DNA of 64,000 nt from Chloroflexota bacterium (GCA_965238265.1 OZ250185.1:989153-1053152); one strand, 5' to 3'. Positions 7,174 through 26,640 are shown, counted from the first letter of the stretch. Translations and numbers: made by a program. The notes: generated by a model from the letters alone, not told the origin.

Positions 7174-7266
7174 GGTTCCCCGCAGACAGACGCGGGGGTA
7201 GACCACTTCGTAGGGCGATGCTCACACATCGCACATTGGTTCCCCCGCACACGCGGGGTTGCGGGC
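7174..7266 (+). CRISPR. Degenerate mini-CRISPR of two decayed I-E repeats in plus-strand canonical orientation, opposite to the main array. The repeats are GGTTCCCCGCAGACAGACGCGGGGGTAGACC and GGTTCCCCCGCACACGCGGGGTTGCGGGC. They are separated by a ~33-nt spacer-like segment and preceded by an AT-richer leader-like stretch (ttcattgtatagaatgg).
   Basis: Both copies match the array repeat (GGTTCCCCCGCACACGCGGGGATAGACC) at about 80-90%, and their ~64-nt spacing is close to the 61-nt array period. They sit in the cas3-cse1 intergenic region. Confidence 0.5.
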
Positions 7267-7282
7267 GCCGGGGCTGTGCCGG

Positions 7283-9928
7283 CTAGAGTCGGCGCAGCCC
7301 CCGGCGGTCGTAGCGGCAGCGTCGCTCGCCAAGGGGGAACTCGAATCCGTCACCGTCCGGCGACGGTACTACCGACTCTGGTTCCTTACCGGACGGCAGC
7401 CAGTCCATCCGCAACGCCAACTTGTCAATCTGCTGCGAGCTGTCGAACGGGCTGGGCTGCGGGGGATCGAGGATTACGTCTAGCCGGTCGTCGCCGAGGC
7501 GCGTGCGTATCCGCTCCTCCTTGCCTGCAAAGGCGATGCCCTGATCGAGGAAAGTCTTGCAGCGCTCAATGACGACATGCTGGCCAGTGACGTTGTCCGC
7601 GATTCTCGCGCCCTCGACCTCGTTTGCATGGACAATCCAGTCCTCGCCCATTCCCCGCGTAATGGCTTTCAGCGCGCCCGGATGCGTGGCCCGCTCCACC
7701 AGCCGCCGGTTCATCTCCGGGATGCGCCACTCGGGATATTCGTCAATCAGCCGCCGCGTCGCTTCCAGTATCCGCAAGTCCTCGTACACATGGCCGTGTG
7801 GCCCCAAGCCGTTCGCGTTCGGCGTGCGCTCCAGCAATGGGGCGAGGTCGTTGTCCGGCGGCGTCAGGACGGTGCAGGCGGGCGTCGTATGGCCGGCCGG
7901 CCGGTCGTGGTGCTCGTGCCGATGGAGGCGGCCGATGCGCTGGAGCAGCACGTCCGCCGGGCAGAGGTCGGTAATCAGCAGGTCCGCGTCAATATCCAGC
8001 GACTGCTCCAGCGTTTGCGTGCCGACGACGATATGTCCACCGCCGGGCGGCTGTTTGCCAAGCTGCCGTTCCACCTCCTCATCCAGCAACCGGCGGTCCG
8101 CGGCGGCGAACCGGCCATGATGCAGCGTTGGCTTGCCGCAGACGGTGAACAGCAGCCCGGCGTCGGCGGGGCCGGCCAGCTCTTCTATCGCTTGCTGGGT
8201 ATTGATGGCGTAGTCAACGGTGTTGCGAACCACCAGGACCTTTGCACCGGCACGGGCGGCCGTCAAGGCGCGGTGGGCGGTGTCGTCGAAGTCGTGCATC
8301 CTGGAAACCGCCGTGATATGGACGCGCTTGCGCTGGTCGTTCTCGTTGGCCGCGAGGACCGCTTCACGGCCGTCTCCCAGTGTGGTGACCGCCGGGTATG
8401 CGGTGTTGATCGCGTCATCCAGCGAGAGGGACGGGGCCTCGCTGGTGCGGCGCGGCCGGAAGAGCCAGCGCAAGCGGGCCGCCGAGCCGAGCGTGGCGGA
8501 CATGAGCAAGGCGTAGCCGCCGGCGCCGATGTGGGCAGCGAGCAATTGCTCCAGAATGGCGCTCATGTAGGTGTCGGAAGCGTGAACCTCGTCTACGACC
8601 AAGAGATTGCGCGCCAGGCACGCGGCCCGCATATGGGCGTTCTTGACTTGGAGCGCGCCCAGCATCGCCTGGTCTACGGTGCCGACGGCGATCTGGGCAG
8701 CGAGGAACCGCTTGGGGTTCTCGGCAGCCCACGGTCTGTCGCGGTTGTAGTCCGGCAATTCCACGCCGGCGGCATCCGCGTCAGGTTCGTAGCCGGGGAC
8801 GGCGAGCACCACGGGCGGCCTGTGCTGTGGCAGCAGCTTGCCGATGAAGCGCTTGACGCGCCCGTGGATCTGGACGGCGGCCGCTCGCGTGGGCAGGGCG
8901 AAGTAGAGGCCGTCCACCAACTGTCGCTCGTACATCTTGGCAAAGCGCCAGAGCGCGGCCTCCGTCTTGCCGGAGCCGGTTTCGGACTCGATGATGACCA
9001 GCTGCTGATCCAGCGGCGTGCGCTGTGCAGTCGCTTGGATGGCGTTCGGCGTGGGTGAACCGGGTATGTCGAACAGCTCTCCGAACTCCGGTACGCGAGT
9101 AAAGCCGTTCCGCTGACCGAGTAAGTCCAGCCCTATCGCGCCGATGGCCTGCTTCGCCTGTCGCTGGGCCGCCTCGAAGTAGTCGTCCCGGTGTTCGTCA
9201 ACAAACGGGAACCAGTCCTCGTTGGAGCCAATCCAGTCGGCCCAGTTGCACAGTCCCAGGAACATGTGCTGGAAGGCGGGAGCGGACGGCAGTGGCGGGG
9301 CACCAGAGTCGAACGCCGCCGGGAACCATTGGCGCACCAGCTTGCCGATCCGCGCGACGCAGCGGCGCGGGTGAAGCTCGCCAAAGGAGCACCAGACGCG
9401 CGCGTTCTCCGACCGGCTGTCATGCAGATTCAGCGGCTCACCGTGATGCGACAGCGCCGCGACGAATAACGCACACGCGGTCACGCCGCCATCGCTATCC
9501 CAGGACAGAACGTCATCATCCCATCCCAGCGCCTCGAAGAACCACGCGGCAGTTTCCCCGTCCCTGCCAGTAAGCACGGGTACTAGGTCTGCCGTGTGTC
9601 CGGTGCGCGGTGGTTTCCTCTTGTTCGACAGGTCTTCCGGGCGCCAGATTCGCGCCTGGAAGCCGACGTTTACCTTGCCGATATCGTGCAGGGCAGCGAA
9701 GACAGCCAGACGCGCAGCGGTTGCGTCGTCGAGGTGGTCGAAACCAGCGGTCCAGGCCAGCCGGTTCCGGATGATCGGTTGGGCCAGCAGTGCCTCGAAG
9801 CAGGCGCCGACATCGGCAAGGTGGTACTCGAGCAGGTGAATGTCCTCCGGACCCCGTTGCCGGCCAGGGGCCGCCTTGGCCCAGAACAGCCTGGTGTAGG
9901 CCGGTGTGCCCTCTACCCGGCCGACCAC
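7283..9928 (-). CDS. cas3: Cas3 HD-nuclease / SF2 helicase (type I-E). A GTG start is predicted at 9928, overlapping the vapC stop.
   Basis: The 881-aa ORF has an N-terminal HD domain (...HLLEYHLADVGACFEALL..., HD motifs), helicase motifs (GSGKTEAAL Walker A, DEVH-type motif II) and a C-terminal domain. Confidence 0.88.
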   Translation of the reverse strand: MVGRVEGTPAYTRLFWAKAAPGRQRGPEDIHLLEYHLADVGACFEALLAQPIIRNRLAWTAGFDHLDDATAARLAVFAALHDIGKVNVGFQARIWRPEDLSNKRKPPRTGHTADLVPVLTGRDGETAAWFFEALGWDDDVLSWDSDGGVTACALFVAALSHHGEPLNLHDSRSENARVWCSFGELHPRRCVARIGKLVRQWFPAAFDSGAPPLPSAPAFQHMFLGLCNWADWIGSNEDWFPFVDEHRDDYFEAAQRQAKQAIGAIGLDLLGQRNGFTRVPEFGELFDIPGSPTPNAIQATAQRTPLDQQLVIIESETGSGKTEAALWRFAKMYERQLVDGLYFALPTRAAAVQIHGRVKRFIGKLLPQHRPPVVLAVPGYEPDADAAGVELPDYNRDRPWAAENPKRFLAAQIAVGTVDQAMLGALQVKNAHMRAACLARNLLVVDEVHASDTYMSAILEQLLAAHIGAGGYALLMSATLGSAARLRWLFRPRRTSEAPSLSLDDAINTAYPAVTTLGDGREAVLAANENDQRKRVHITAVSRMHDFDDTAHRALTAARAGAKVLVVRNTVDYAINTQQAIEELAGPADAGLLFTVCGKPTLHHGRFAAADRRLLDEEVERQLGKQPPGGGHIVVGTQTLEQSLDIDADLLITDLCPADVLLQRIGRLHRHEHHDRPAGHTTPACTVLTPPDNDLAPLLERTPNANGLGPHGHVYEDLRILEATRRLIDEYPEWRIPEMNRRLVERATHPGALKAITRGMGEDWIVHANEVEGARIADNVTGQHVVIERCKTFLDQGIAFAGKEERIRTRLGDDRLDVILDPPQPSPFDSSQQIDKLALRMDWLPSGKEPESVVPSPDGDGFEFPLGERRCRYDRRGLRRL

Positions 9929-10338
9929 GGATTCATTACCTCAATCCCACAGCCGGCAAAGTCATCCACATCCCGGGTCGCAACCCGTGCCCCTCGGGAG
10001 CGGGCAATCGCTGCGATCTGGCAGTCGGCCTGATTGATCGGCCGGCCAGCGGCACGGCGATCCGCCGCGATCACCGCGAATGCTCGGGCGGCCGCACTGT
10101 CGAAGGGCAAGATACGGTCGGCGAATAGGACACCGAAGGCACGCTCGGCCGCGGCAGCCAGACCGTGCCGCCGTCTTCCACCGGGCAACAGTGCGATGCC
10201 GCTGCGGATCTCCGCCTCAGTGACAGCGGTCACGAATAGGGTGCTCGCCAGCTGCTGGTCCAGCCAAGCAAGGACCTCCGGCTGCGGGTAGTCCCGCATC
10301 AGTTCCGAGACAACATTGGTATCCAGAACGATCATCAC
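9913..10338 (-). CDS. vapC: PIN-domain toxin VapC/FitB-like (copy A)
   Basis: The 141-aa ORF carries the four conserved PIN acidic residues (IVLDTNVV, TEAEI, DCQIAAIA, TRDVDDF). Confidence 0.85.
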   Translation of the reverse strand: MMIVLDTNVVSELMRDYPQPEVLAWLDQQLASTLFVTAVTEAEIRSGIALLPGGRRRHGLAAAAERAFGVLFADRILPFDSAAARAFAVIAADRRAAGRPINQADCQIAAIARSRGARVATRDVDDFAGCGIEVMNPWSAG

Positions 10339-12707: not shown

Positions 12708-15844
<3,137 letters not shown>

Positions 15845-15925: not shown

Positions 15926-16306
15926 TCACGGTGCCGCTGAACGCTCTTCAATGATGACTTCGCCGTCGGCCCATGTTTCCAGCGTTACGCTACTGTCCCA
16001 GAGCAGATCCATTCCAAGCAGCGGGACACTATCCGATTGCAGCACCAGCGCATCAGCCAAGCGTCCGTGCCAGGATACCGTAGCACGGTAGGTATTGAAT
16101 TCGAATGGCTCCCCATTGGCCAACTCGAAGATTCGATAACCTGCCGAAGGAAGTCCCAACCGCCGAATGGCATCCGGGGGTAGTGTCAAGTAGCCGGTGA
16201 ATCCGGTGTCCAAGACGACCTCCAATTCTTGGAGGCGGTCCTCGCTGTCCATAACGGCTAAGGTAATCAAGGCTTGTTGGTACTGGTTTACTTTTCCCCT
16301 AATCAT
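15926..16306 (-). CDS. Retropepsin-like (clan AA) aspartic protease with a DTGF motif (VLDTGFTGYL)
   Basis: 126-aa ORF with a single D-T-G active-site motif followed by F, the size expected of a homodimeric retropepsin. Its ATGA start overlaps the stop of the upstream small ORF. Local GC is about 52-54%. Confidence 0.65.
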   Translation of the reverse strand: MIRGKVNQYQQALITLAVMDSEDRLQELEVVLDTGFTGYLTLPPDAIRRLGLPSAGYRIFELANGEPFEFNTYRATVSWHGRLADALVLQSDSVPLLGMDLLWDSSVTLETWADGEVIIEERSAAP

Positions 16307-16572
16307 GGCTTGAACGTCAAGCTCCCGCCGCCCATGCTGTAGGCAGCGCGATAACCGACCCGCAGTCCATAGATGACGGCATCCGACCGCCGTTGCTGCA
16401 ATCGGCGCGTGGCTGTTGCGTCGTTGGCATCCAACTCGTAATCGCCGGTTTCGATGTCAATGACCACGAACTTGCCGTGTTCCTGCGGCTCCACCAAGCG
16501 GCGTATCTTTTCCCGGTAGATCGCCTCGCCGCGAGCGCATGCCTCCTTGGGGCTATAAGTCCGGGTTGTCAT
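16303..16572 (-). CDS. Small 89-aa protein of unknown function, translationally coupled to the aspartic protease
   Basis: An ORF with a 4-bp ATGA overlap onto the downstream protease gene. No fold was recognised by eye. Confidence 0.5.
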   Translation of the reverse strand: MTTRTYSPKEACARGEAIYREKIRRLVEPQEHGKFVVIDIETGDYELDANDATATRRLQQRRSDAVIYGLRVGYRAAYSMGGGSLTFKP

Positions 16573-16639: not shown

Positions 16640-16860
16640 TAGTTGTCAGACGGTCCGCTGCCGGGCCCCAGCGTCGGCCCGGCCGGGCGGGTCAGCCGGC
16701 GGAAGGAGCCATACAGCGCATCGGCGGGAGGTCCGCTCGGCGCCGGGGGCGTCGGGGGCGATGTCCGGCCCGTGCGCCACCCGCCAGCCGAGGGCGGCCA
16801 GCCAGTCAAGGGCGGCGGCCTCAACGTCGGCTTCGGTGAGGGTCATTGGCGCGTTCACTG
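16640..16860 (-). pseudogene. Decayed ~220-bp duplicate of the hsdR 5' end: about 85% identical to 15598-15850 with a ~60-bp internal deletion and frameshifts
   Basis: ORF 16646-16858 ([42 protein letters not shown]...) parallels the HsdR N-terminus, and the nucleotide alignment to 15598-15850 is visible by eye. Confidence 0.7.
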
Positions 16861-17745
16861 GTTTCTAGCCTTTGCCCACATCAGTGATGACCGTCGAAAG
16901 GCTGACATTTTGGCCGTGTACCGATAGGCATTAGGCGGTTCTAGGTGGGAATTCGAGAGGTGTTCGATCAAGGCACCATACAGAGCAGCCAAATGCGTAC
17001 CTGGTATCGAACCGCCTTCTGTCTCCGCGCCTTCGGCGAAGAACCAGTCATAATCCGATTGTGCAACTTCAACAGGATATTTGTGAATTGAGATGCCTTC
17101 CTGCCCATCCATTTTCCCGTAGCATATGATTCCTTTGTTCAAGAGCACCGACATATTAGGCAGCAAACTAGGATCAACCGACGAGAGAAGAGTCATCACT
17201 TTTCCGAATTCGAAATCGCCACCATCTATACATAGAAGAAATGCATATAGGCTGTTCAAATATTTGTTCGGGCTGGCTAGCACGATATCATTCATTGATG
17301 TGGAGTCCTTAAGTCCTCCATGGAAGGTGTTTTCTACAAGAGGTCTATCCATTCCAGAAATCTGTTGCAAAACGTCATGCAGTTTCTCATAATAACGTTC
17401 GGACTGATAATAGGTTGATTTCACCTCACCGATTGCATATACGGAGGTTACGGGTACGTACTCGGTGCCATCTTTGGTAGTCAGCAACGACGGGAGGCTG
17501 AAATTGTCGGCGATGATTACATCCAATTGCGGGCTGACCAGATTGCTTGAATCGATGAGGTGACCGCTTGTAACATAGTAACGAGGCGGCAACATACGTT
17601 TCAAGTAGTCACGAACCGATTGTTCAACCTGGTTTCCAGCCGCTCTAATGTCTGTGGGGTGAATTCGAATGGCCTCCTCGCGTGCTCGCTGTAGGGCTTC
17701 CGCATCCGATTTGAAGATTCCTGCGAGGTTTAGGGTACTTGGCAT
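16855..17745 (-). CDS. Hypothetical 296-aa protein with a candidate PD-(D/E)xK nuclease motif (QLDVIIAD ... YAIGEVKST). It lies between hsdS and the hsdR remnant, and its GC (~48%) is well below that of its neighbours.
   Basis: The motif spacing (D ~30 aa before E-x-K) is consistent with a restriction-endonuclease-like fold. The composition shift is visible by eye, and no other homology was recognised. Confidence 0.45.
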
Positions 17746-17770
17746 CTACTTGTCCCTTTATTATACGTAC

Positions 17771-19375
17771 TCACAATGCCCCCACCTCACCCGACACCAG
17801 CCTCGGCAACAGCGCATCCCGCAGGTCGGCCAGGGTGCGTGATTCCGTTTTGGTTGACTCCATCTTGTCGAGGATGGAGCCAGCACTCATGGAAAACCAG
17901 TCCAACACGTCAGTTCCAGCAGTGGGAATTGCTACTTCAGTTTCACTAACGACCTCTGGACGAACCGCCGGATATGCTGCGCCATCCGCTCGGTGAGCCA
18001 GCCACTCAATATTGTCTGGGGCTGTCGCTGCAAGATATACCAACTCCCGGAACCGTGGGTTCAAAGGCCGAAGCACGGCGAATCCGGTGCTTCCCGTCAG
18101 ACCATCGTTTCCTATAAGTGAGTAAGAACCGTTGCCCGGTCGAACTGTCCCAACTATGGTGTCTCCAGAGCGAAGGGCCCGTTTTGCCCTACTAGGGGCA
18201 TCCTTCCAAGAAAAATGTTGCGTGGATTCGATTACTCCCCACTTTGTGTTCGCCAAGTCAACGTATTCGATATCTGTGGGGCTATTCGTTCTGGACCAAG
18301 ACTCAGGGTTGAGATTCGAAAACTCCCCGACCGCCTTCACCTCCCACCCCGCCGGTATCTCCCCCAGCTCCGAGGCCACCAGGCGCTCCGGGAACAGCGC
18401 CCACAGCTCCGGCGGCAGGTACGGCGCGCGACCGGCCAGCTTGGCGCGCGTGGGGCCGAAGTCCACGAACCAGTCCTGGAAGAGGGCGCGGGCCATGGCC
18501 TCCAGCGTCTCGTTCATCCGGCGGTTGAGCGCGATCTTGTCGTCGAGGGTGCCGAGGACGTGGGCGATGGCGCGCTGTTCGGGGAGGGGAGGTGCAAGTA
18601 CACTCAACGACTGGATCATTGCCTTCGTAAGGGCGTTTCGAGTTCCGCCTGATCCTGCCCAAGACAAGAGCATGGTCTGTGTCTCAGGACAAGCGAGGAA
18701 ATAGCGCAGGAAGCGCGAGTCTAACTGGTTTGGGTCTGTCCGAATGATAGCGACGTGCTGGTTCACCCGTGCCGGAAGCACTCCGGGATCAACCTGGCAC
18801 ACACGCGCCACCGAATCGCCGGTAATGTTCAGTAGCACATCATCTGGAAAGACCTCGACGTTCCGCAGGCCGTGCGCCTGTTCATCACTGATATAGGCCA
18901 ACCCCTCGTGGCTGAACCCAGCATTGTAGACGTTCTGGCTACGAATCAATGCGTAGGGTCCGTCTTCCAGGTAGACATCCCGGCCCCCTCGTGGCGTGGC
19001 TCCACTGCCAATTTTGGTGCAGGCATCTCCAAGCACTATTTCCCGCCACTCGCTCGCCGCTGCCGATTGCTCGTCCGTGCCTTGCTGCAACACTACGTAG
19101 TCGCGCTCTATCACCGCCCGGAAGCGCTCGGGGATCGTGTGCCAGTCGTGTACGTCCACCCGCATGGGCAGGTCCGATTCCTCAAAGGCTTCCTTCAGCC
19201 GACCGAGTACTCCCCACTCCAGCGGTCCCCCGCCGACAACGGCCAGGTCCAGGTCGGAGTAGTCCTTCGCGGTCCAAGTCGCACGGGAACCGAAGGCGCG
19301 TATCTCGCACGCCGGCACGTGCTCCGCCAGGATGCGCCGGACCGTGCCGAGGTGGTGCGGGTTGAGGTCAATCAT
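17771..19375 (-). CDS. hsdS: In-frame fusion of a minimal nucleotidyltransferase (MNT, residues 1-~105; GSRATWTAKDYSDLDLAVV) to a type I specificity subunit HsdS (residues ~112-534, two target-recognition domains)
   Basis: A single 534-aa ORF. The N-terminus has the GS-x9-DxD nucleotidyltransferase motif. From SEWREIVLGDACTKIGSGATP onwards it is a canonical HsdS with central and C-terminal conserved helices (LPEQRAIAHVLGTLDDKIALN...). No ATG separates the two parts. Confidence 0.75.
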   Translation of the reverse strand: MIDLNPHHLGTVRRILAEHVPACEIRAFGSRATWTAKDYSDLDLAVVGGGPLEWGVLGRLKEAFEESDLPMRVDVHDWHTIPERFRAVIERDYVVLQQGTDEQSAAASEWREIVLGDACTKIGSGATPRGGRDVYLEDGPYALIRSQNVYNAGFSHEGLAYISDEQAHGLRNVEVFPDDVLLNITGDSVARVCQVDPGVLPARVNQHVAIIRTDPNQLDSRFLRYFLACPETQTMLLSWAGSGGTRNALTKAMIQSLSVLAPPLPEQRAIAHVLGTLDDKIALNRRMNETLEAMARALFQDWFVDFGPTRAKLAGRAPYLPPELWALFPERLVASELGEIPAGWEVKAVGEFSNLNPESWSRTNSPTDIEYVDLANTKWGVIESTQHFSWKDAPSRAKRALRSGDTIVGTVRPGNGSYSLIGNDGLTGSTGFAVLRPLNPRFRELVYLAATAPDNIEWLAHRADGAAYPAVRPEVVSETEVAIPTAGTDVLDWFSMSAGSILDKMESTKTESRTLADLRDALLPRLVSGEVGAL

Positions 19376-19790
19376 TGCGCGCTTCCAACGCCGCCAGCAG
19401 CAGCCGCGCGTCGTGTACGAACTCCCTGGTGGCGCTATAGACCAGCGCGGCCTTCGCCTCGTCGTAGATGTGGGAGGTGACGTTCCTGGCTTCGTGATGC
19501 TGCATCCAGAGGTCTACGTCGGGAATGAGCCGATTTTCGGCCGCGAGGCGGAATAGCTGCCGCCGCGTGACGCCATCCGCGACGTCGGGGCCGACGTAGG
19601 TCCTCAACCAGCGCGCCATCAACTTCCAGGAAAGCTCGTAGGTGACCTCGAAGTTCTGTATAACGCCGGAGCGAATGCCGTTCCGCTCGACCTCGCTCAA
19701 CTCTCCCATGCGCGCGTCATTTTCGCTGACCGCCAGCAGGTCTGCGAGCGCTCTGATCGCGTTTCTCAGGTGGTCCAGCTCCAGTGGCAT
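19368..19790 (-). CDS. HEPN-domain protein (HI0074-like nucleotidyltransferase substrate-binding family; R-x4-HxY motif RNVTSHIY). It is the HEPN partner of the MNT fused to hsdS.
   Basis: 140-aa ORF whose stop overlaps the start of the MNT-hsdS ORF, and which carries the HEPN motif. Confidence 0.7.
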   Translation of the reverse strand: MPLELDHLRNAIRALADLLAVSENDARMGELSEVERNGIRSGVIQNFEVTYELSWKLMARWLRTYVGPDVADGVTRRQLFRLAAENRLIPDVDLWMQHHEARNVTSHIYDEAKAALVYSATREFVHDARLLLAALEARND

Positions 19791-19863: not shown

Positions 19864-20301
19864 TCATTCCCAAGTCTCCCCGGTCATCGTCTGGTACAGC
19901 CCAATGGCATCGTCAACAAAGTCATCCACCAGCGCCAGGGCTTGCTCCGCTTTTTCGCCGCTGTAGTCGTGGGTCGTGTCAATGCGAGCCTGTATGTATT
20001 CGTTCCATTGTGGGAAGGGAGACGAGAGCAGATTGTTCGCATCGGCCAAACGGAAGATGGGCCGGGGACTGCGGGGAGCTTCAGCAACGCCCAATTCTTC
20101 TTGCAGGTAGCGCCGGAGCACTTTATGCAGCGCATCGTAGCAGGTCTCGAACCGCTGAATCACCGATTCGGCCATTCCCTCATGGATAAATTGCGGCAGC
20201 GCCGGGTCAAGGTGTTTCCGATGCTCATGCTGCAATTCCAGGTTCTTGAGGGATTTTCTGAAGTTGCCGTAATCAATCATTGCCGTGCCCCGCTCACGCA
20301 C
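19864..20301 (-). CDS. HEPN-domain protein, second copy (R-x4-HxY motif RIDTTHDY)
   Basis: 145-aa ORF immediately downstream of the interrupted MNT at 20304-20656. Its GC is about 52%. Confidence 0.7.
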   Translation of the reverse strand: MRERGTAMIDYGNFRKSLKNLELQHEHRKHLDPALPQFIHEGMAESVIQRFETCYDALHKVLRRYLQEELGVAEAPRSPRPIFRLADANNLLSSPFPQWNEYIQARIDTTHDYSGEKAEQALALVDDFVDDAIGLYQTMTGETWE

Positions 20302-20680: not shown

Positions 20681-22276
<1,596 letters not shown>

Positions 22277-22518: not shown

Positions 22519-24294
22519 CTATGTGCCTTCCCAATGCAACGAAGTACGGCGCTGATCTAGTTCGACAATGACCTTGGCAAAGAGGAATCCGTAACGCTCA
22601 ACGCTAGGATAGTCCTGCGGCTCGCCATTCACACGCAGCGTCAGCGGGCATCCCCGCGGCCTATGCACAAGGATGCAGGCATCCTGGAGCTGCGTCTCCG
22701 CTGTAAGGTGGATGCTGTGTCTGTCGTCGAAGGTGAACCGCACGGCGCGGCGTGCTCGCTCCCAAGCATTGATCTCGTAGGACTGCCACCACGGCAGCCC
22801 GCGTGTGCTGACGAGCTGTACGAGGTCTGTCATCGCAGTTGGTACGCCTGGACGGAGGACATGGTTGGGGTGGAAGAGATAGTGTGCAATACCGTAGTGT
22901 CGCTGCACGCGGTCGAGCAGTAACGGGCCTGCTGAGTAGGGCGCGAGCCAGCCCGGCCGGGCGTCAGGATCACTGACCGGGTGCATGAGGTCTTGGGTCA
23001 GCAGATTCACTTCCAGTACGTCGCTGCATACTCCCGAATCCGGATCCATGGGAAACCAGGGATGGGAGCTCCCCACGAGATACCCCGTGTTGCCGCGCCG
23101 GTTTGGACCCTTCGTTTGATCAGTAGCGACGCCAAGTTTGGTGAGCCAGTGGAAGAACTCCAAGTACCCTTCCCAGCGCAGACCATGGTTCTTGTTGGTG
23201 ATTACGGCATCCAGCCCAGCTTCCTGTTTAAGGTACGACCACTGGAAGCGTAGGTCCTCAAAGCGCCACCGCGTATGCTCCATCTGGGTGCGCGCATCGA
23301 AGTGGAGCGCGAGCTCGCTCCCCGAGGACCGCACGGCGTCGTAGAACTGGCGGGTGTAGCCGGGGTAGAGGATGCACCAGGTTGACTTGATCCCGAGCTC
23401 CTGCACGCGCTCGAGCATGTGCCACGCCTTCTCGATCTGGTTGCCATCGGAGTCATGCGAGAGGTGCGCGATCGCTGTGAGGTCACCGGGCCAGTACCAC
23501 AGCAGTGGAAACACCGCGCGGGCGTGCGTGGCGCAATAGAAGACGCTGCGCAGGAGAATGGCGCGCAACTCATCACCAATCGCTTCCAAGAAGAAGGGGA
23601 CTTCGGTGTCGTGTGTACGATCCCGGTTCCAGTCCAGCACCATGCCGTCTTCAACGTTGAACCTGCCGTCGTCAATATCGGCAGTACCATCCGGAGCAGG
23701 CACGCCATCCTGAAAGATGGGAATGCCTTGCAACATGTGCAGGATACACCAGGGCAAGTCGGCGGCCGTAAATAGAACAAGCCCCCGGCCCTGCCGGTGC
23801 TCTGAAATCCCCACACCAACCTGTTTGCCATCGGCGTCCGTCAACTCCGCCAGGACGGTTGCGCCAGAAACCTGGGCCGTGGCGGCGTCCCAGACGTGGA
23901 GTGAACTGTGGAGGTCGCGGACGACCACGTGATGTGGCTGCGTAACACGCAGAAATCCTTCGTGCAACCCCGACTGCGACTGCACACCACAGAGGTCGTC
24001 GAGGCCGCTGGTGCCTCCCAAGGCAACCAAGGCCCCTCCGCTGGCGACGAACCGGTACATCGCTTCTACATCTGGTGGAGAAGTATGGTGAGGGAGGAGG
24101 ACCACTCTGGTATCGAGGAGCGCTTCTGCGAGACCGGCAGAGTCGATGCGCGCGAACGGGATGCCGGCATGGCCCAGCACCTCCAGGATGTACCGCGAGC
24201 GGGGATGGTATGCACCATCCTGCAGATAGACGCCGATGGAGCCGGGATGGCCACGGATCATGGCTGTGTATCTCCTACAGCGGGGCCGCTGCAA
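22519..24294 (-). CDS. Hypothetical 591-aa protein. The N-terminus may be a class-I glutamine-amidotransferase-like / ThuA-like domain, and the C-terminus a polysaccharide-deacetylase-like region. It heads the co-directional island.
   Basis: A long ORF with only weak motif resemblance. The call is by eye. Confidence 0.3.
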   Translation of the reverse strand: MQRPRCRRYTAMIRGHPGSIGVYLQDGAYHPRSRYILEVLGHAGIPFARIDSAGLAEALLDTRVVLLPHHTSPPDVEAMYRFVASGGALVALGGTSGLDDLCGVQSQSGLHEGFLRVTQPHHVVVRDLHSSLHVWDAATAQVSGATVLAELTDADGKQVGVGISEHRQGRGLVLFTAADLPWCILHMLQGIPIFQDGVPAPDGTADIDDGRFNVEDGMVLDWNRDRTHDTEVPFFLEAIGDELRAILLRSVFYCATHARAVFPLLWYWPGDLTAIAHLSHDSDGNQIEKAWHMLERVQELGIKSTWCILYPGYTRQFYDAVRSSGSELALHFDARTQMEHTRWRFEDLRFQWSYLKQEAGLDAVITNKNHGLRWEGYLEFFHWLTKLGVATDQTKGPNRRGNTGYLVGSSHPWFPMDPDSGVCSDVLEVNLLTQDLMHPVSDPDARPGWLAPYSAGPLLLDRVQRHYGIAHYLFHPNHVLRPGVPTAMTDLVQLVSTRGLPWWQSYEINAWERARRAVRFTFDDRHSIHLTAETQLQDACILVHRPRGCPLTLRVNGEPQDYPSVERYGFLFAKVIVELDQRRTSLHWEGT

Positions 24295-24464
24295 TGCCCT
24301 GGGTTAGCACCAGGCTTCGCGAAGCAGACGGACTGCGGTTTGCTCAATCATTACGCCGGCCTCTGCGGTGTGCCGGCTGTGCGGTCCCAAGTTGACCTCG
24401 TAGGCGCCCTCGTCGAAGGCACGTGACGTCGGGAAGTAGCCCTGCCAGTCGTTCGCATAGCCGG

Positions 24465-24596
24465 CTATTGCCGTGACTGGAATTCTTCATAGAGGTCGAC
24501 GCCTGGCAGGTCTGGGGTGAACCGAATCTCCTTTTGCCGTTTGTTCCAGGATTCGGGGCCTTCCAGGATCCATATCATGTGTTCAGGGTTAGCCAT
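24465..24596 (-). CDS. Small 43-aa ORF (MANPEHMIWILEGPESWNKRQKEIRFTPDLPGVDLYEEFQSRQ) with a strong RBS (GGAGGAAG 7 nt upstream of the ATG) in a lower-GC patch
   Basis: The RBS and ORF were read from the sequence. Function unknown. Confidence 0.3.
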   Translation of the reverse strand: MANPEHMIWILEGPESWNKRQKEIRFTPDLPGVDLYEEFQSRQ

Positions 24597-25703
24597 GAGG
24601 TACTTCCTCCGAAGTCTGTATACTGTTCGTGCTATATGGATGTCGTCCCCATGATGAACCTGCCGACGGCTCGCGTGCAATCCCTGGCTACCGCGACGTA
24701 AGTTAATGCCAGTCATGGGACGGCGTCATGACTACGCCCGACCGGAAGGCGGCGAGGATCCTGCCCTATCACGTTCGGCGTCCTGTCCCACCTCTAGATA
24801 CGCGTCCAGTGACCTCCACCACCTAACTCTCCAATTCCCTACGACGCCTGGCGAAGAGGCCGCGCCAGCCGAGGACCTGCACATTCCCCGTTTCGTCCTC
24901 AATGATCACGAACACCGTGCCGTCCCGCCCGCGCGGGTGCCGCTTGGCCACAGGCTAGCCAATCACCGTAACCCATTCGTCATCGCCGCCCTTCTCCACT
25001 TCCCCGCCGGGAATACGCCGGGACGCAAGCCTGGTCTGACGAACTCCACGAGGCAGCCTCTTGGGTACAATGCGGTTTCCAGTTGCCTCTTGGGGAAGTC
25101 AACATGACAGGGGAAGGCTTAGCCTGCCGGCGACCCGGTTTGACCCCAATAAGGCTGCACACACATAAGCTCCCCCATAGGGCCCCCTAGAATTCGCAGT
25201 ACAACAGTACGCTCTGGCCCACAGAATCAAACTGCTGTGCTCGTTGCATACAAACATCGGAGCAACAGCACCCAAGTATCGGTTAGTCAATGGTCTGGAA
25301 CTGGAAAGAGCACAATCCCGGCGGATGCTGAACTGAGAGAGGTCGCGAGAAGGACGACTCGGCGTGATCTTTATGCCGAGCCAGCCGACCCTGGTGACCC
25401 GGCGTCGCCGCTACTGATGATGCCTAGGATTGGACTGAGGGCAAGACGCACGCCCTATCAGTTCCGGTTCTTCATGTAGGATGGCAAGTTGTCGGGAAAT
25501 CTGCCAGGAGCCCATCCTCTCAAGATACGATAAGAGACTCGCAGCAACCGCAGTCCATGGGCGTCCGCATCGTCACCGAGAACAGCACCAGCCTGCGCTT
25601 TGAGGACAGCCGGTTCGAGAGTGAGTAGCCCGCCCTGCCCTGGCCGCTTCTCCGGCGGCGAGACGGGGTATGATGGCACGCCGGCGGTTCGCGAAGGCGC
25701 TTA

Positions 25704-26129
25704 CTACCCGGCCGACCACGGATTCATTACCTCAATCCCACAGCCGGCAAAGTCATCCACATCCCGGGTCGCAACCCGTGCCCCTCGGGAGCGAGCAATC
25801 GCTGCGATCTGGCAGTCGGCCTGATTGATCGGCCGGCCAGCGGCACGGCGATCCGCCGCGATCACCGCGAATGCTCGGGCGGCCGCACTGTCGAAGGGCA
25901 AGATACGGTCGGCGAATAGGACACCGAAGGCACGCTCGGCCGCGGCAGCCAGACCGTGCCGCCGTCTTCCACCGGGCAACAGTGCGATGCCGCTGCGGAT
26001 CTCCGCCTCAGTGACAGCGGTCACGAATAGGGTGCTCGCCAACTGCTGGTCCAGCCAAGCAAGGACCTCCGGCTGCGGGTAGTCCCGCATCAGTTCCGAG
26101 ACAACATTGGTATCGAGAACGATCATCAC
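25704..26129 (-). CDS. vapC: PIN-domain toxin VapC/FitB-like (copy B), identical to copy A
   Basis: Its translation is identical to ORF 9913-10338. Confidence 0.85.
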   Translation of the reverse strand: MMIVLDTNVVSELMRDYPQPEVLAWLDQQLASTLFVTAVTEAEIRSGIALLPGGRRRHGLAAAAERAFGVLFADRILPFDSAAARAFAVIAADRRAAGRPINQADCQIAAIARSRGARVATRDVDDFAGCGIEVMNPWSAG

Positions 26130-26640
26130 CGTTGGCTCAGTCGAACCGGGGCGGTTCCCGCATCGGTTCCCGCGGCGGGATATCCAGCTCTACGCTGCCG
26201 AAAGGCTTGAAAAGCTCGTGGATGGCTGTACCGAGGTTTCTTACGGGGGCTTTCTCCTGCCCGAGCGCGGCTCGCAGGATGTCATGCACCTCCTCTTCCA
26301 GGGAGTGGCCATGCTGGGCCGCCCGGCGGCGGAGGCGCTGCTGTAGGCTCTCGTCGAGGTTACGGACCGTGATACTGGCCATGCTCGTACCTCCGTCTGT
26401 CAACTCATTCCATCGTACCACGACTGCACCGCAAGCAATTGGCCGGCCGAAGGCGGCGGGCGTCGTAGTCCAGAATGGAGAGCGGATTAGGGGTTCCGCG
26501 AGTATGGGTAGTGTTGCCTCACTCTCTCCGCTCGCCTATAATTGCCGGGCGCAATGACCGGGGCGCTGGGCTTGGGAACCTACAGGGGCACCACCAATTC
26601 AAACGTGGTACTGCGTACAGTCCACCTAGGCCCACCAGAG
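25705..26640. repeat. Direct repeat copy B (see 9915-10835). It carries the second vapB/vapC pair and a 17-codon recombinase 3' end.
   Basis: Near-identical to copy A. Confidence 0.9.
26137..26421 (-). CDS. vapB: VapB/FitA-like antitoxin (copy B)
   Basis: Its translation is identical to ORF 10346-10630. Confidence 0.75.
   Translation of the reverse strand: MVRWNELTDGGTSMASITVRNLDESLQQRLRRRAAQHGHSLEEEVHDILRAALGQEKAPVRNLGTAIHELFKPFGSVELDIPPREPMREPPRFD

Follow-up and report, generated by a model that had tools for sequence, protein, structure and literature searches.

In the prr locus, which has the gene order prrA–prrB–prrC–prrD, the accessory gene prrC lies between hsdS and hsdR, two genes of type I restriction–modification (RM). 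Bound to EcoprrI, PrrC stays latent, and a T4 inhibitor of EcoprrI activates it (PMC1484252). Damona, a single-gene anti-phage cassette in the chromosomal integron of Vibrio cholerae N16961, is protective when cloned alone; its protein gives DUF6602, Cas PD_DExK and cyclic-oligonucleotide-based anti-phage signalling system (CBASS) small-endonuclease profile matches, and its homologues have been reported chiefly from integrons of Vibrio and prophages of Acinetobacter (Darracq et al., bioRxiv 10.1101/2024.07.02.601686). The nuclease NucC is activated by cyclic triadenylate (cA3), which binds in a three-fold pocket formed by Arg53, Tyr81, which provides base stacking, and Thr226/Val227, and this pocket is closed by a gate loop with His136 and Tyr141 as its latch; mutation of any pocket or latch residue, Tyr81 included, abolishes activation, the D73N variant loses both cleavage and immunity, and the α0 helix packs trimers into the active hexamer (10.1101/694703). 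Here, we describe a gene of a Chloroflexota bacterium, located at 16855–17745 on the minus strand of a stretch of 64,000 nucleotides (GCA_965238265.1 OZ250185.1:989153-1053152; hereafter the window), which lies in a type I RM operon and encodes a stand-alone NucC-like (DUF6602) protein of 296 residues with a predicted PD-(D/E)xK nuclease fold. On balance, we favour the view that this protein is an autonomous one-gene nuclease of the Damona type, with the fold of NucC, which acts against phages or other mobile elements and is embedded here in a type I operon.

The open reading frame (ORF) starts with ATG and stops with TGA, and both of the peptides in which the initial annotation had seen a D…E-x-K spacing are present in its product. 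Asp75 (codon 17523–17521) lies within the peptide QLDVIIAD, and Glu107 (17427–17425) and Lys109 (17421–17419) both lie within AIGEVKST; the catalytic motif D75…E107-V108-K109 (17419–17523, minus strand) was assigned from the sequence, the alignment to NucC and the conservation in the family, and its D-x31-E-x-K spacing matches the IDx30EAK of NucC. The gene had also been described as an orphan of no known family, which did not hold, as the protein is a clear member of the Pfam family DUF6602 (PF20247), with a score of 69.7 bits against a gathering threshold of 27 and an E-value of 2.3e-19. Residues 32–121, the nuclease core (17383–17652, minus strand), match positions 9–97 of the 104 of the profile and align by sequence to residues ~34–132 of NucC. 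Since the NucC sequences in the databases bear PF20247, DUF6602 is the family of the NucC nuclease core, and it therefore also covers the NucC proteins of CBASS and type III CRISPR systems. The PADLOC profiles for the Cas-associated PD_DExK nuclease (1.6e-22) and for two NucC effectors (8.7e-20 and 2.5e-16) were matched, and an NCBIfam search with the protein gave no match. In the PDB sequence search NucC alone was found (from Serratia, P. aeruginosa, V. metoecus and E. coli), with a best E-value of 3.8e-8 from the single sequence and 1.1e-11 from the family profile.

The AlphaFold2 model, calculated with 45 homologues (pLDDT 92.2, pTM 0.89), consists of a restriction-endonuclease-like PD-(D/E)xK core to which an N-terminal α0 helix, an insertion resembling the gate loop and a C-terminal lobe are added. 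In the Foldseek search of the PDB, NucC chains were the sole significant matches, extending over the whole chain with an E-value of 3e-14 and a TM-score of 0.74–0.77 normalised to NucC, and HHalign aligned residues 1–282 of the family with residues 1–241 of NucC at 98.8% probability. Structures of NucC are available as PDB entries 6P7O/6P7P, 6Q1H, 6UXF and 7ZGV. As judged from the profiles and the model, the protein is a DUF6602 member with a predicted PD-(D/E)xK fold and a whole-chain fold specific to NucC. The nuclease fold proposed earlier is thus borne out by the NucC-type core of the model and by the conservation of the motif residues in 217 homologues; a chance match to the motif was ruled out by this conservation together with the profile hidden Markov models, the PDB sequence search and the fold searches.

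The family is large, with 366 matches among 90%-identity clusters and, among 50%-identity cluster representatives, 1171 matches at E ≤ 0.001 and 80 at E ≤ 1e-30; all of the homologues listed bear PF20247, and the architecture of ~290–310 residues is retained in relatives down to ~30% identity with the query. Conservation was calculated from 217 full-length members that are 26–84% identical to the query. Asp75 and Glu107 are conserved in 100% of these, Glu41 in 99% and Lys109 in 96%, with Arg in the remainder, and Asp65 (96%), Gln73 (97%) and Arg134 (95%) are nearly as constant. Glu41, Asp65, Gln73, Asp75, Glu107, Lys109 and Arg134 align with Glu39, Asp63, Gln71, Asp73, Glu104, Lys106 and Arg129 of NucC, respectively, and the equivalent of NucC Asp78 is also retained. 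A further set of near-invariant residues is specific to the family, namely Asn164, Phe169, Pro196, Pro224, Trp234, His262 and Tyr276 in the C-terminal lobe, and the invariant Arg45 and His62 are likewise family-specific. The pairwise ratio of nonsynonymous to synonymous substitution (dN/dS) between the gene and its close homologues is 0.06–0.15. This low ratio (~0.1) indicates that the gene is functional and under purifying selection and is not decaying, and it rules out a spurious ORF. The conserved residues suggest that the protein has DNase activity: it would be a Mg2+-dependent DNA endonuclease with the catalytic residues Glu41, Asp75, Glu107 and Lys109, and from what is known of the PD-(D/E)xK family it would hydrolyse DNA by a one- or two-metal mechanism involving Asp75, Glu107 and Lys109 together with Glu41.

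The genomic contexts of the relatives were drawn from 39 loci of GTDB species genomes and 28 loci of JGI metagenomes, to which the called-gene contexts of eight close homologues and of the window protein were added, giving a total of 60 distinct proteins. Among the hosts are Chloroflexota/Dehalococcoidia, Acidobacteriota, Gammaproteobacteria, Bacteroidota, Planctomycetota, Verrucomicrobiota, Candidatus Obscuribacterales (Cyanobacteriota) and Vibrio, as well as an archaeon, Methanothrix; the distribution across bacteria and archaea is patchy. Most of the relatives are solitary genes. The 99 immediate neighbours at ~60 non-redundant loci fall into 93 Pfam families, of which only the type I RM domains recur, with three or four neighbours each; linkage to a cognate methyltransferase was ruled out, as no methyltransferase recurs among the neighbours. 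Individual homologues lie in transposase-rich DNA, beside methyltransferases, beside a HigB/HTH toxin–antitoxin pair or in an island with helicase, DprA-like and GmrSD genes, and others adjoin an Eco57I-like enzyme, a type ISP enzyme, a STAND NTPase or a DUF499 protein; some have housekeeping neighbours (valyl-tRNA synthetase, enoyl-CoA hydratase and RND efflux genes).

A cassette context was found in Vibrio sp. WZ-1 (L040 1–7862), in which an attC-like repeat of 129 nt occurs seven times over 7.9 kb at a spacing of 0.5–1.4 kb, forming an integron cassette array. The homologue (L040 1840–2715) occupies exactly one cassette between these repeats and is full-length, with 31% identity to the window protein over 226 residues (E = 4e-32). 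In two Dehalococcoidia genomes (L008 10001–12618 and L016 10001–12716) the homologue is disrupted by an insertion sequence (IS) with a DDE_Tnp_1_4 transposase, at residue ~251 in one and at residues ~210–220 in the other and in opposite orientations. These distinct sites and orientations indicate two independent inactivations, which would fit a costly gene. Viral relatives were not found in a tblastn search of 50,697 phage genomes, an IMG/VR scan or a BFVD fold search, and an origin from a phage or prophage is therefore not supported.

The composition of the gene agrees with the values of the initial annotation (~48% against ~65%), as its guanine–cytosine (GC) content is 47.6% compared with 64.8% in 9.6 kb of flanking sequence. 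It is the lowest-GC stretch of 891 nt in the window (z = −4.5), only 0.08% of the stretches being equally low, and the GC content at third codon positions is 0.50 compared with 0.86–0.92 in hsdM and hsdR. These two measures show that the compositional island is real and that it matches the extent of the gene. The island is as sharp as had been described, but the gene has a lower GC content than its flanks in 64 of the 71 loci, with a mean difference of eight points, and the low GC content, which had been taken to imply horizontal acquisition, is accordingly a trait of the family, not peculiar to the window genome, and by itself a weak sign of a recent genome-specific event.

The position after an hsdS gene with an N-terminal MNT nucleotidyltransferase domain and ahead of hsdR recurs in two subclades. 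In the subclade of the window protein this slot is filled in L079 (84% identity), L080 (78%) and L081 (77%), and in the second subclade in L007, L015, L052 and L009 (53–55% identity); in L007, L015 and L052 the nuclease reading frame overlaps hsdS by 8–17 nt and abuts hsdR. What lies between the nuclease gene and hsdR varies: an aspartic protease pair in the window, AAA_14/DUF4143 and DUF5677-like genes in L080, an 8xMP gene in L081 and a DUF433 gene in L079. The type I-embedded subclades make up about nine of the 60 distinct proteins. A 73%-identical member (L082) has no type I genes nearby, and in L043 (6899–8228) an intact copy with 72% identity is found among transposases, between the last 25 codons of hsdS and an internal hsdR fragment of 101 codons, where the nuclease gene has evidently outlived a decayed type I system. 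The hsdS–X–hsdR synteny raised in the initial annotation is thus confirmed as a recurring position, but in two subclades only, most relatives being solitary. The nuclease has repeatedly settled, tightly packed, after MNT-hsdS in one type I lineage, which is a new but modest observation.

Given the fold, the protein might simply be an orphan NucC, that is, a trimer-to-hexamer DNase gated by a cyclic oligonucleotide, with cA3 or a related signal coming in trans from another locus of the genome that encodes a CBASS or type III CRISPR system. For the comparison the NucC numbering was anchored on full-length NucC genes from annotated plasmids, as a 96-residue NucC fragment used as a query gave short fragments only. 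The two proteins share the family DUF6602, the motif (D-x31-E-x-K and IDx30EAK), the α0 helix and the gate-loop-like insertion, whereas the sequence identity is only 16–20%, the nuclease is ~55 residues longer and the C-terminal halves cannot be aligned by sequence. The conservation of the whole fold, including the α0 helix and the gate-loop-like region, favours gating of this kind, and it also suggests an oligomerization similar to that of NucC. In the pocket, Arg53 aligns with Arg55 of the nuclease, a position occupied by Arg in 54% and by Lys in 10% of the family, and Arg134 aligns with the conserved Arg129 of NucC. The gate-loop-like region (residues 131–166) is longer than that of NucC, and its H142-G-G aligns near H136-A-G-G, which it resembles; 78% of the family have an aromatic residue or His at position 142, and Gly144 is 80% conserved. 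A clear equivalent of Tyr141 was not found in the alignment. Tyr81 aligns, in a high-confidence HMMER region, with Ser83, and this position is Asn, Ser, Gly or Ala and never aromatic in the family, which is difficult to reconcile with cA3 gating because mutation of Tyr81 abolishes the activation of NucC (10.1101/694703); the adjoining position 82 is not consistently aromatic either. Thr226/Val227 pair with His267/Leu268, in a low-confidence C-terminal stretch of the HHalign alignment, and the pocket-aligned positions 55, 83 and 267 belong to the less conserved ones of the family. The genomic context argues in the same direction. Bona fide nucC genes on plasmids adjoin cap6 and cap7, whereas nothing comparable was found for the nuclease family, and no CD-NTase or Cas10 gene was seen beside its members in the loci examined. 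No recurrent cyclase was seen among the neighbours at the 60 loci, single-gene integron cassettes occur, and within 10 kb of the window gene there is no cyclase but only type I RM, toxin–antitoxin and Cas genes, the last of type I-E only. By these residues and by its operon the nuclease is not a canonical NucC; the missing tyrosine and the lack of a linked cyclase weigh against cA3 as the trigger, so that the activating signal is probably not cA3, and we regard gating by a cyclic oligonucleotide in trans as unlikely.

The operon position suggests a different restraint for the type I-embedded subclades, in which a complex of HsdM and HsdS, with or without HsdR, would hold the nuclease latent and release it once the complex is put out of action by an anti-restriction protein of a phage, as for PrrC. 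The nuclease gene follows hsdS and precedes hsdR, as prrC does, this arrangement recurs in two subclades, and the frames that overlap hsdS by 8–17 nt and abut hsdR in L007, L015 and L052 would suit such a coupling, whereas type I genes are absent from the vicinity of most members, the 73%-identical one among them, a decayed type I system is outlasted by an intact copy on which purifying selection acts, and hsdR of the window is itself frameshifted; this makes such a guard role distinctly improbable. A solitary restriction endonuclease of type II-like (sequence-specific) or type IV-like (modification-dependent) character, cutting directly and without a latent state, would likewise be at home in an RM locus, and some homologues adjoin methyltransferases. 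No methyltransferase is consistently linked, however, and there is no recognisable domain for reading modified bases, the NucC fold accounting for the whole chain, so that we give this explanation little credence. The housekeeping neighbours of some homologues could be taken to indicate a function outside defence, either as a housekeeping or repair nuclease or as a decaying passenger ORF, but a housekeeping role agrees poorly with the patchy distribution across bacteria and archaea, a GC content consistently below that of the host and the association with IS elements, integrons and defence genes, and strong purifying selection speaks against decay; this explanation is very improbable.

The reading that we favour, an autonomous one-gene defence nuclease, is suggested by the analogy to Damona, the frequent occurrence in defence islands, the mobility and foreign composition of the gene and the two IS knock-outs, and the defence or abortive-infection role that had been put forward for the gene is plausible in view of its defence-gene neighbours and its likeness to Damona. 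The gene would form a self-contained module without a dedicated cyclic-oligonucleotide synthase, the nuclease being latent or weakly expressed and cutting DNA once triggered, with the destruction of phage DNA or abortive infection as the outcome. In the window genome, a type I RM operon has taken up this module, immediately behind the MNT-hsdS fusion and probably on a shared transcript.

Several points weigh against this reading. A non-specific DNase without a known regulator should be toxic, and the reading offers no account of its restraint; the whole-chain NucC fold, Arg55 and H142-G-G leave room for gating by a ligand made elsewhere. The absence of a recurrent cyclase partner applies to the 25 most frequent neighbour families at the 60 loci, a count that is compatible with a cyclase at a single locus. 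The likeness to Damona rests on a common domain and profile matches, and the nuclease family was not found in the 50,697 phage genomes or in IMG/VR, whereas Damona homologues are reported in Acinetobacter prophages. Among the longer family members (335–450 residues), a scan for fused sensor domains found DUF6602 alone. A bolder proposal, which we consider quite unlikely, is that the NucC fold no longer depends on cyclic-oligonucleotide signalling and has gained a new switch: in the type I-embedded subclades it would be a latent, PrrC-like cutter of DNA that fires once phage anti-restriction proteins have disabled the Hsd complex, or else it would be controlled by a non-cA3 ligand or phage trigger in a remodelled three-fold pocket. 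If true, either switch would mean that a one-gene defence nuclease of wide occurrence (>1000 50%-identity cluster representatives) follows a new logic of activation.

In the window the order of genes, all on the minus strand, is hsdM, two HEPN-type genes, MNT-hsdS, a 25 nt spacer, the nuclease gene, an hsdR remnant, two ORFs and hsdR. From their profile matches, hsdM (20681–22276) encodes the type I methyltransferase, the genes at 19864–20301 and 19368–19790 between hsdM and hsdS are HEPN-type (NTase_sub_bind), and the upstream operon neighbour of the nuclease gene, at 17771–19375, is the hsdS gene with the N-terminal MNT domain. In the spacer (17746–17770) there are a Shine–Dalgarno-like AAGGGA and the hexamer TATAAT; a scan for promoters and terminators showed neither a full σ70-type promoter nor a terminator in it, and the nuclease gene is therefore probably co-transcribed with hsdS.

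The initial annotation had the gene wedged between hsdS and hsdR; the order is right, but hsdR is not adjacent, as the remnant and two small genes intervene. The degenerate remnant of an hsdR 5′ end (16659–16846), recognised by its nucleotide similarity to the true hsdR start, has its ATG 8 nt past the nuclease stop codon and shows 81–82% nucleotide identity to the true start (15589–15838), with an internal deletion of 65 nt. This remnant marks an older direct junction of the nuclease gene and hsdR and points to recombination or insertion that separated the two. The intervening genes are an 89-residue ORF without a family match (16303–16572) and an ORF of 126 residues (15926–16306) for a clan-AA (retropepsin-like) aspartic protease, which matches TIGR03698 with an E-value of 1e-12, under the family cut-off; their ATGA stop/start overlap gives the pair a toxin–antitoxin-like layout. 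A comparable small aspartic protease ORF lies 2.3 kb upstream of the nuclease homologue in L046.

The hsdR gene itself (12708–15844) occupies two reading frames, split near 14936–14960, just upstream of the Walker A motif. The intact HsdR proteins of L080 and L007 align in frame −1 to ~14954 and in frame −3 from ~14960, and an identical split is present in the independent contigs L001 (57× coverage) and L002. One possibility is a restriction-deficient, methylation-only type I system; another is an error that recurs within a G-rich run. In HsdS, the MNT/Pol-β nucleotidyltransferase domain comprises residues 1–100, and the fusion is also present in L007, L015, L052, L079 and L080. The two HEPN-type NTase_sub_bind genes ahead of hsdS are HI0074-like, and one has an overlap of 8 nt with it; judging from these domains, the type I operon incorporates a fused HEPN/MNT toxin–antitoxin-like module.

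A type I-E CRISPR-Cas locus (Cas3 HD-helicase and Cse1) begins ~3 kb beyond hsdR, at ~7200–10000 of the window, its position being taken from L001 (17818–20891). On this same side of hsdR, opposite to a first RHH-PIN pair beyond hsdM, a second RHH-PIN pair adjoins cas3. The first pair, which is FitAB-like, belongs to a segment of ~4 kb (~22519–26400) that is kept in the window, L001 and L002 and also contains an ORF of 580–591 residues (22519–24294) without a Pfam match. In the otherwise near-identical contig L003 (1–1400) this segment is missing and hsdM comes right after a gene of the MR_MLE enolase superfamily. The region is a defence island composed of type I RM, toxin–antitoxin pairs and type I-E CRISPR-Cas, and the presence or absence of the ~4 kb segment is a strain-level variation in its content.

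With regard to the occurrence of the family, the metagenome sample ERZ28763718 contains at least four members on separate contigs of ~1 Mb or more (L043, L046, L048 and L050, which share 72, 68, 65 and 58% identity, respectively, with the window protein), and the family appears to be enriched in the community of this sample. Several records point to sponge-associated metagenome-assembled genomes, examples being Candidatus Poriferisocius and bins COS1 and RHO3.

In conclusion, the supposed orphan can now be placed as a full-length, cyclase-less relative of NucC in a large, mobile and biochemically uncharacterised family. Proteins annotated as 'DUF6602 domain-containing protein' may accordingly be read as NucC-like PD-(D/E)xK nucleases and probable defence effectors, and the type I-embedded copies would add a DNase to the short list of accessory effectors within hsd operons. 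The placement raises the question of how a DNase with the NucC fold is silenced and activated without a second messenger, which applies to Damona as well. The family offers suitable material for such a study: the proteins are compact (296 residues), their invariant catalytic residues can be mutated and they occur in contrasting contexts, namely as solitary genes, as an integron cassette and in a type I operon.

Compared with the systems already described, the fold, the DUF6602/NucC family, a single-gene DUF6602 cassette (Damona) and accessory effectors in type I operons (PrrC and TgvAB) are known. The type IIP enzymes of the Kpn2I/NgoMIV/SgrAI/Bse634I/Cfr10I group differ in that they have no sequence similarity to the nuclease, which is without a cognate methyltransferase and bears NucC-type embellishments where those enzymes have their DNA-recognition elements. 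As in the PrrC/EcoprrI and TgvAB loci, an accessory defence gene stands amid the type I genes of one operon, but neither effector is homologous to the nuclease, PrrC being an ABC-ATPase-regulated tRNA anticodon nuclease, for which the coupling to the type I enzyme has been shown, and TgvAB a GmrSD-like type IV enzyme. Damona is likewise a single-gene unit, the window protein gives the same trio of DUF6602, Cas PD_DExK and CBASS endonuclease matches and one homologue of the window protein likewise forms a cassette of one gene within an integron-like array of Vibrio, whereas the window nuclease sits in the type I RM operon of a high-GC bacterium. What is new, and of modest novelty, is a well defined subfamily of ~296-residue, NucC-like proteins without a cyclase and without the cA3-stacking tyrosine.

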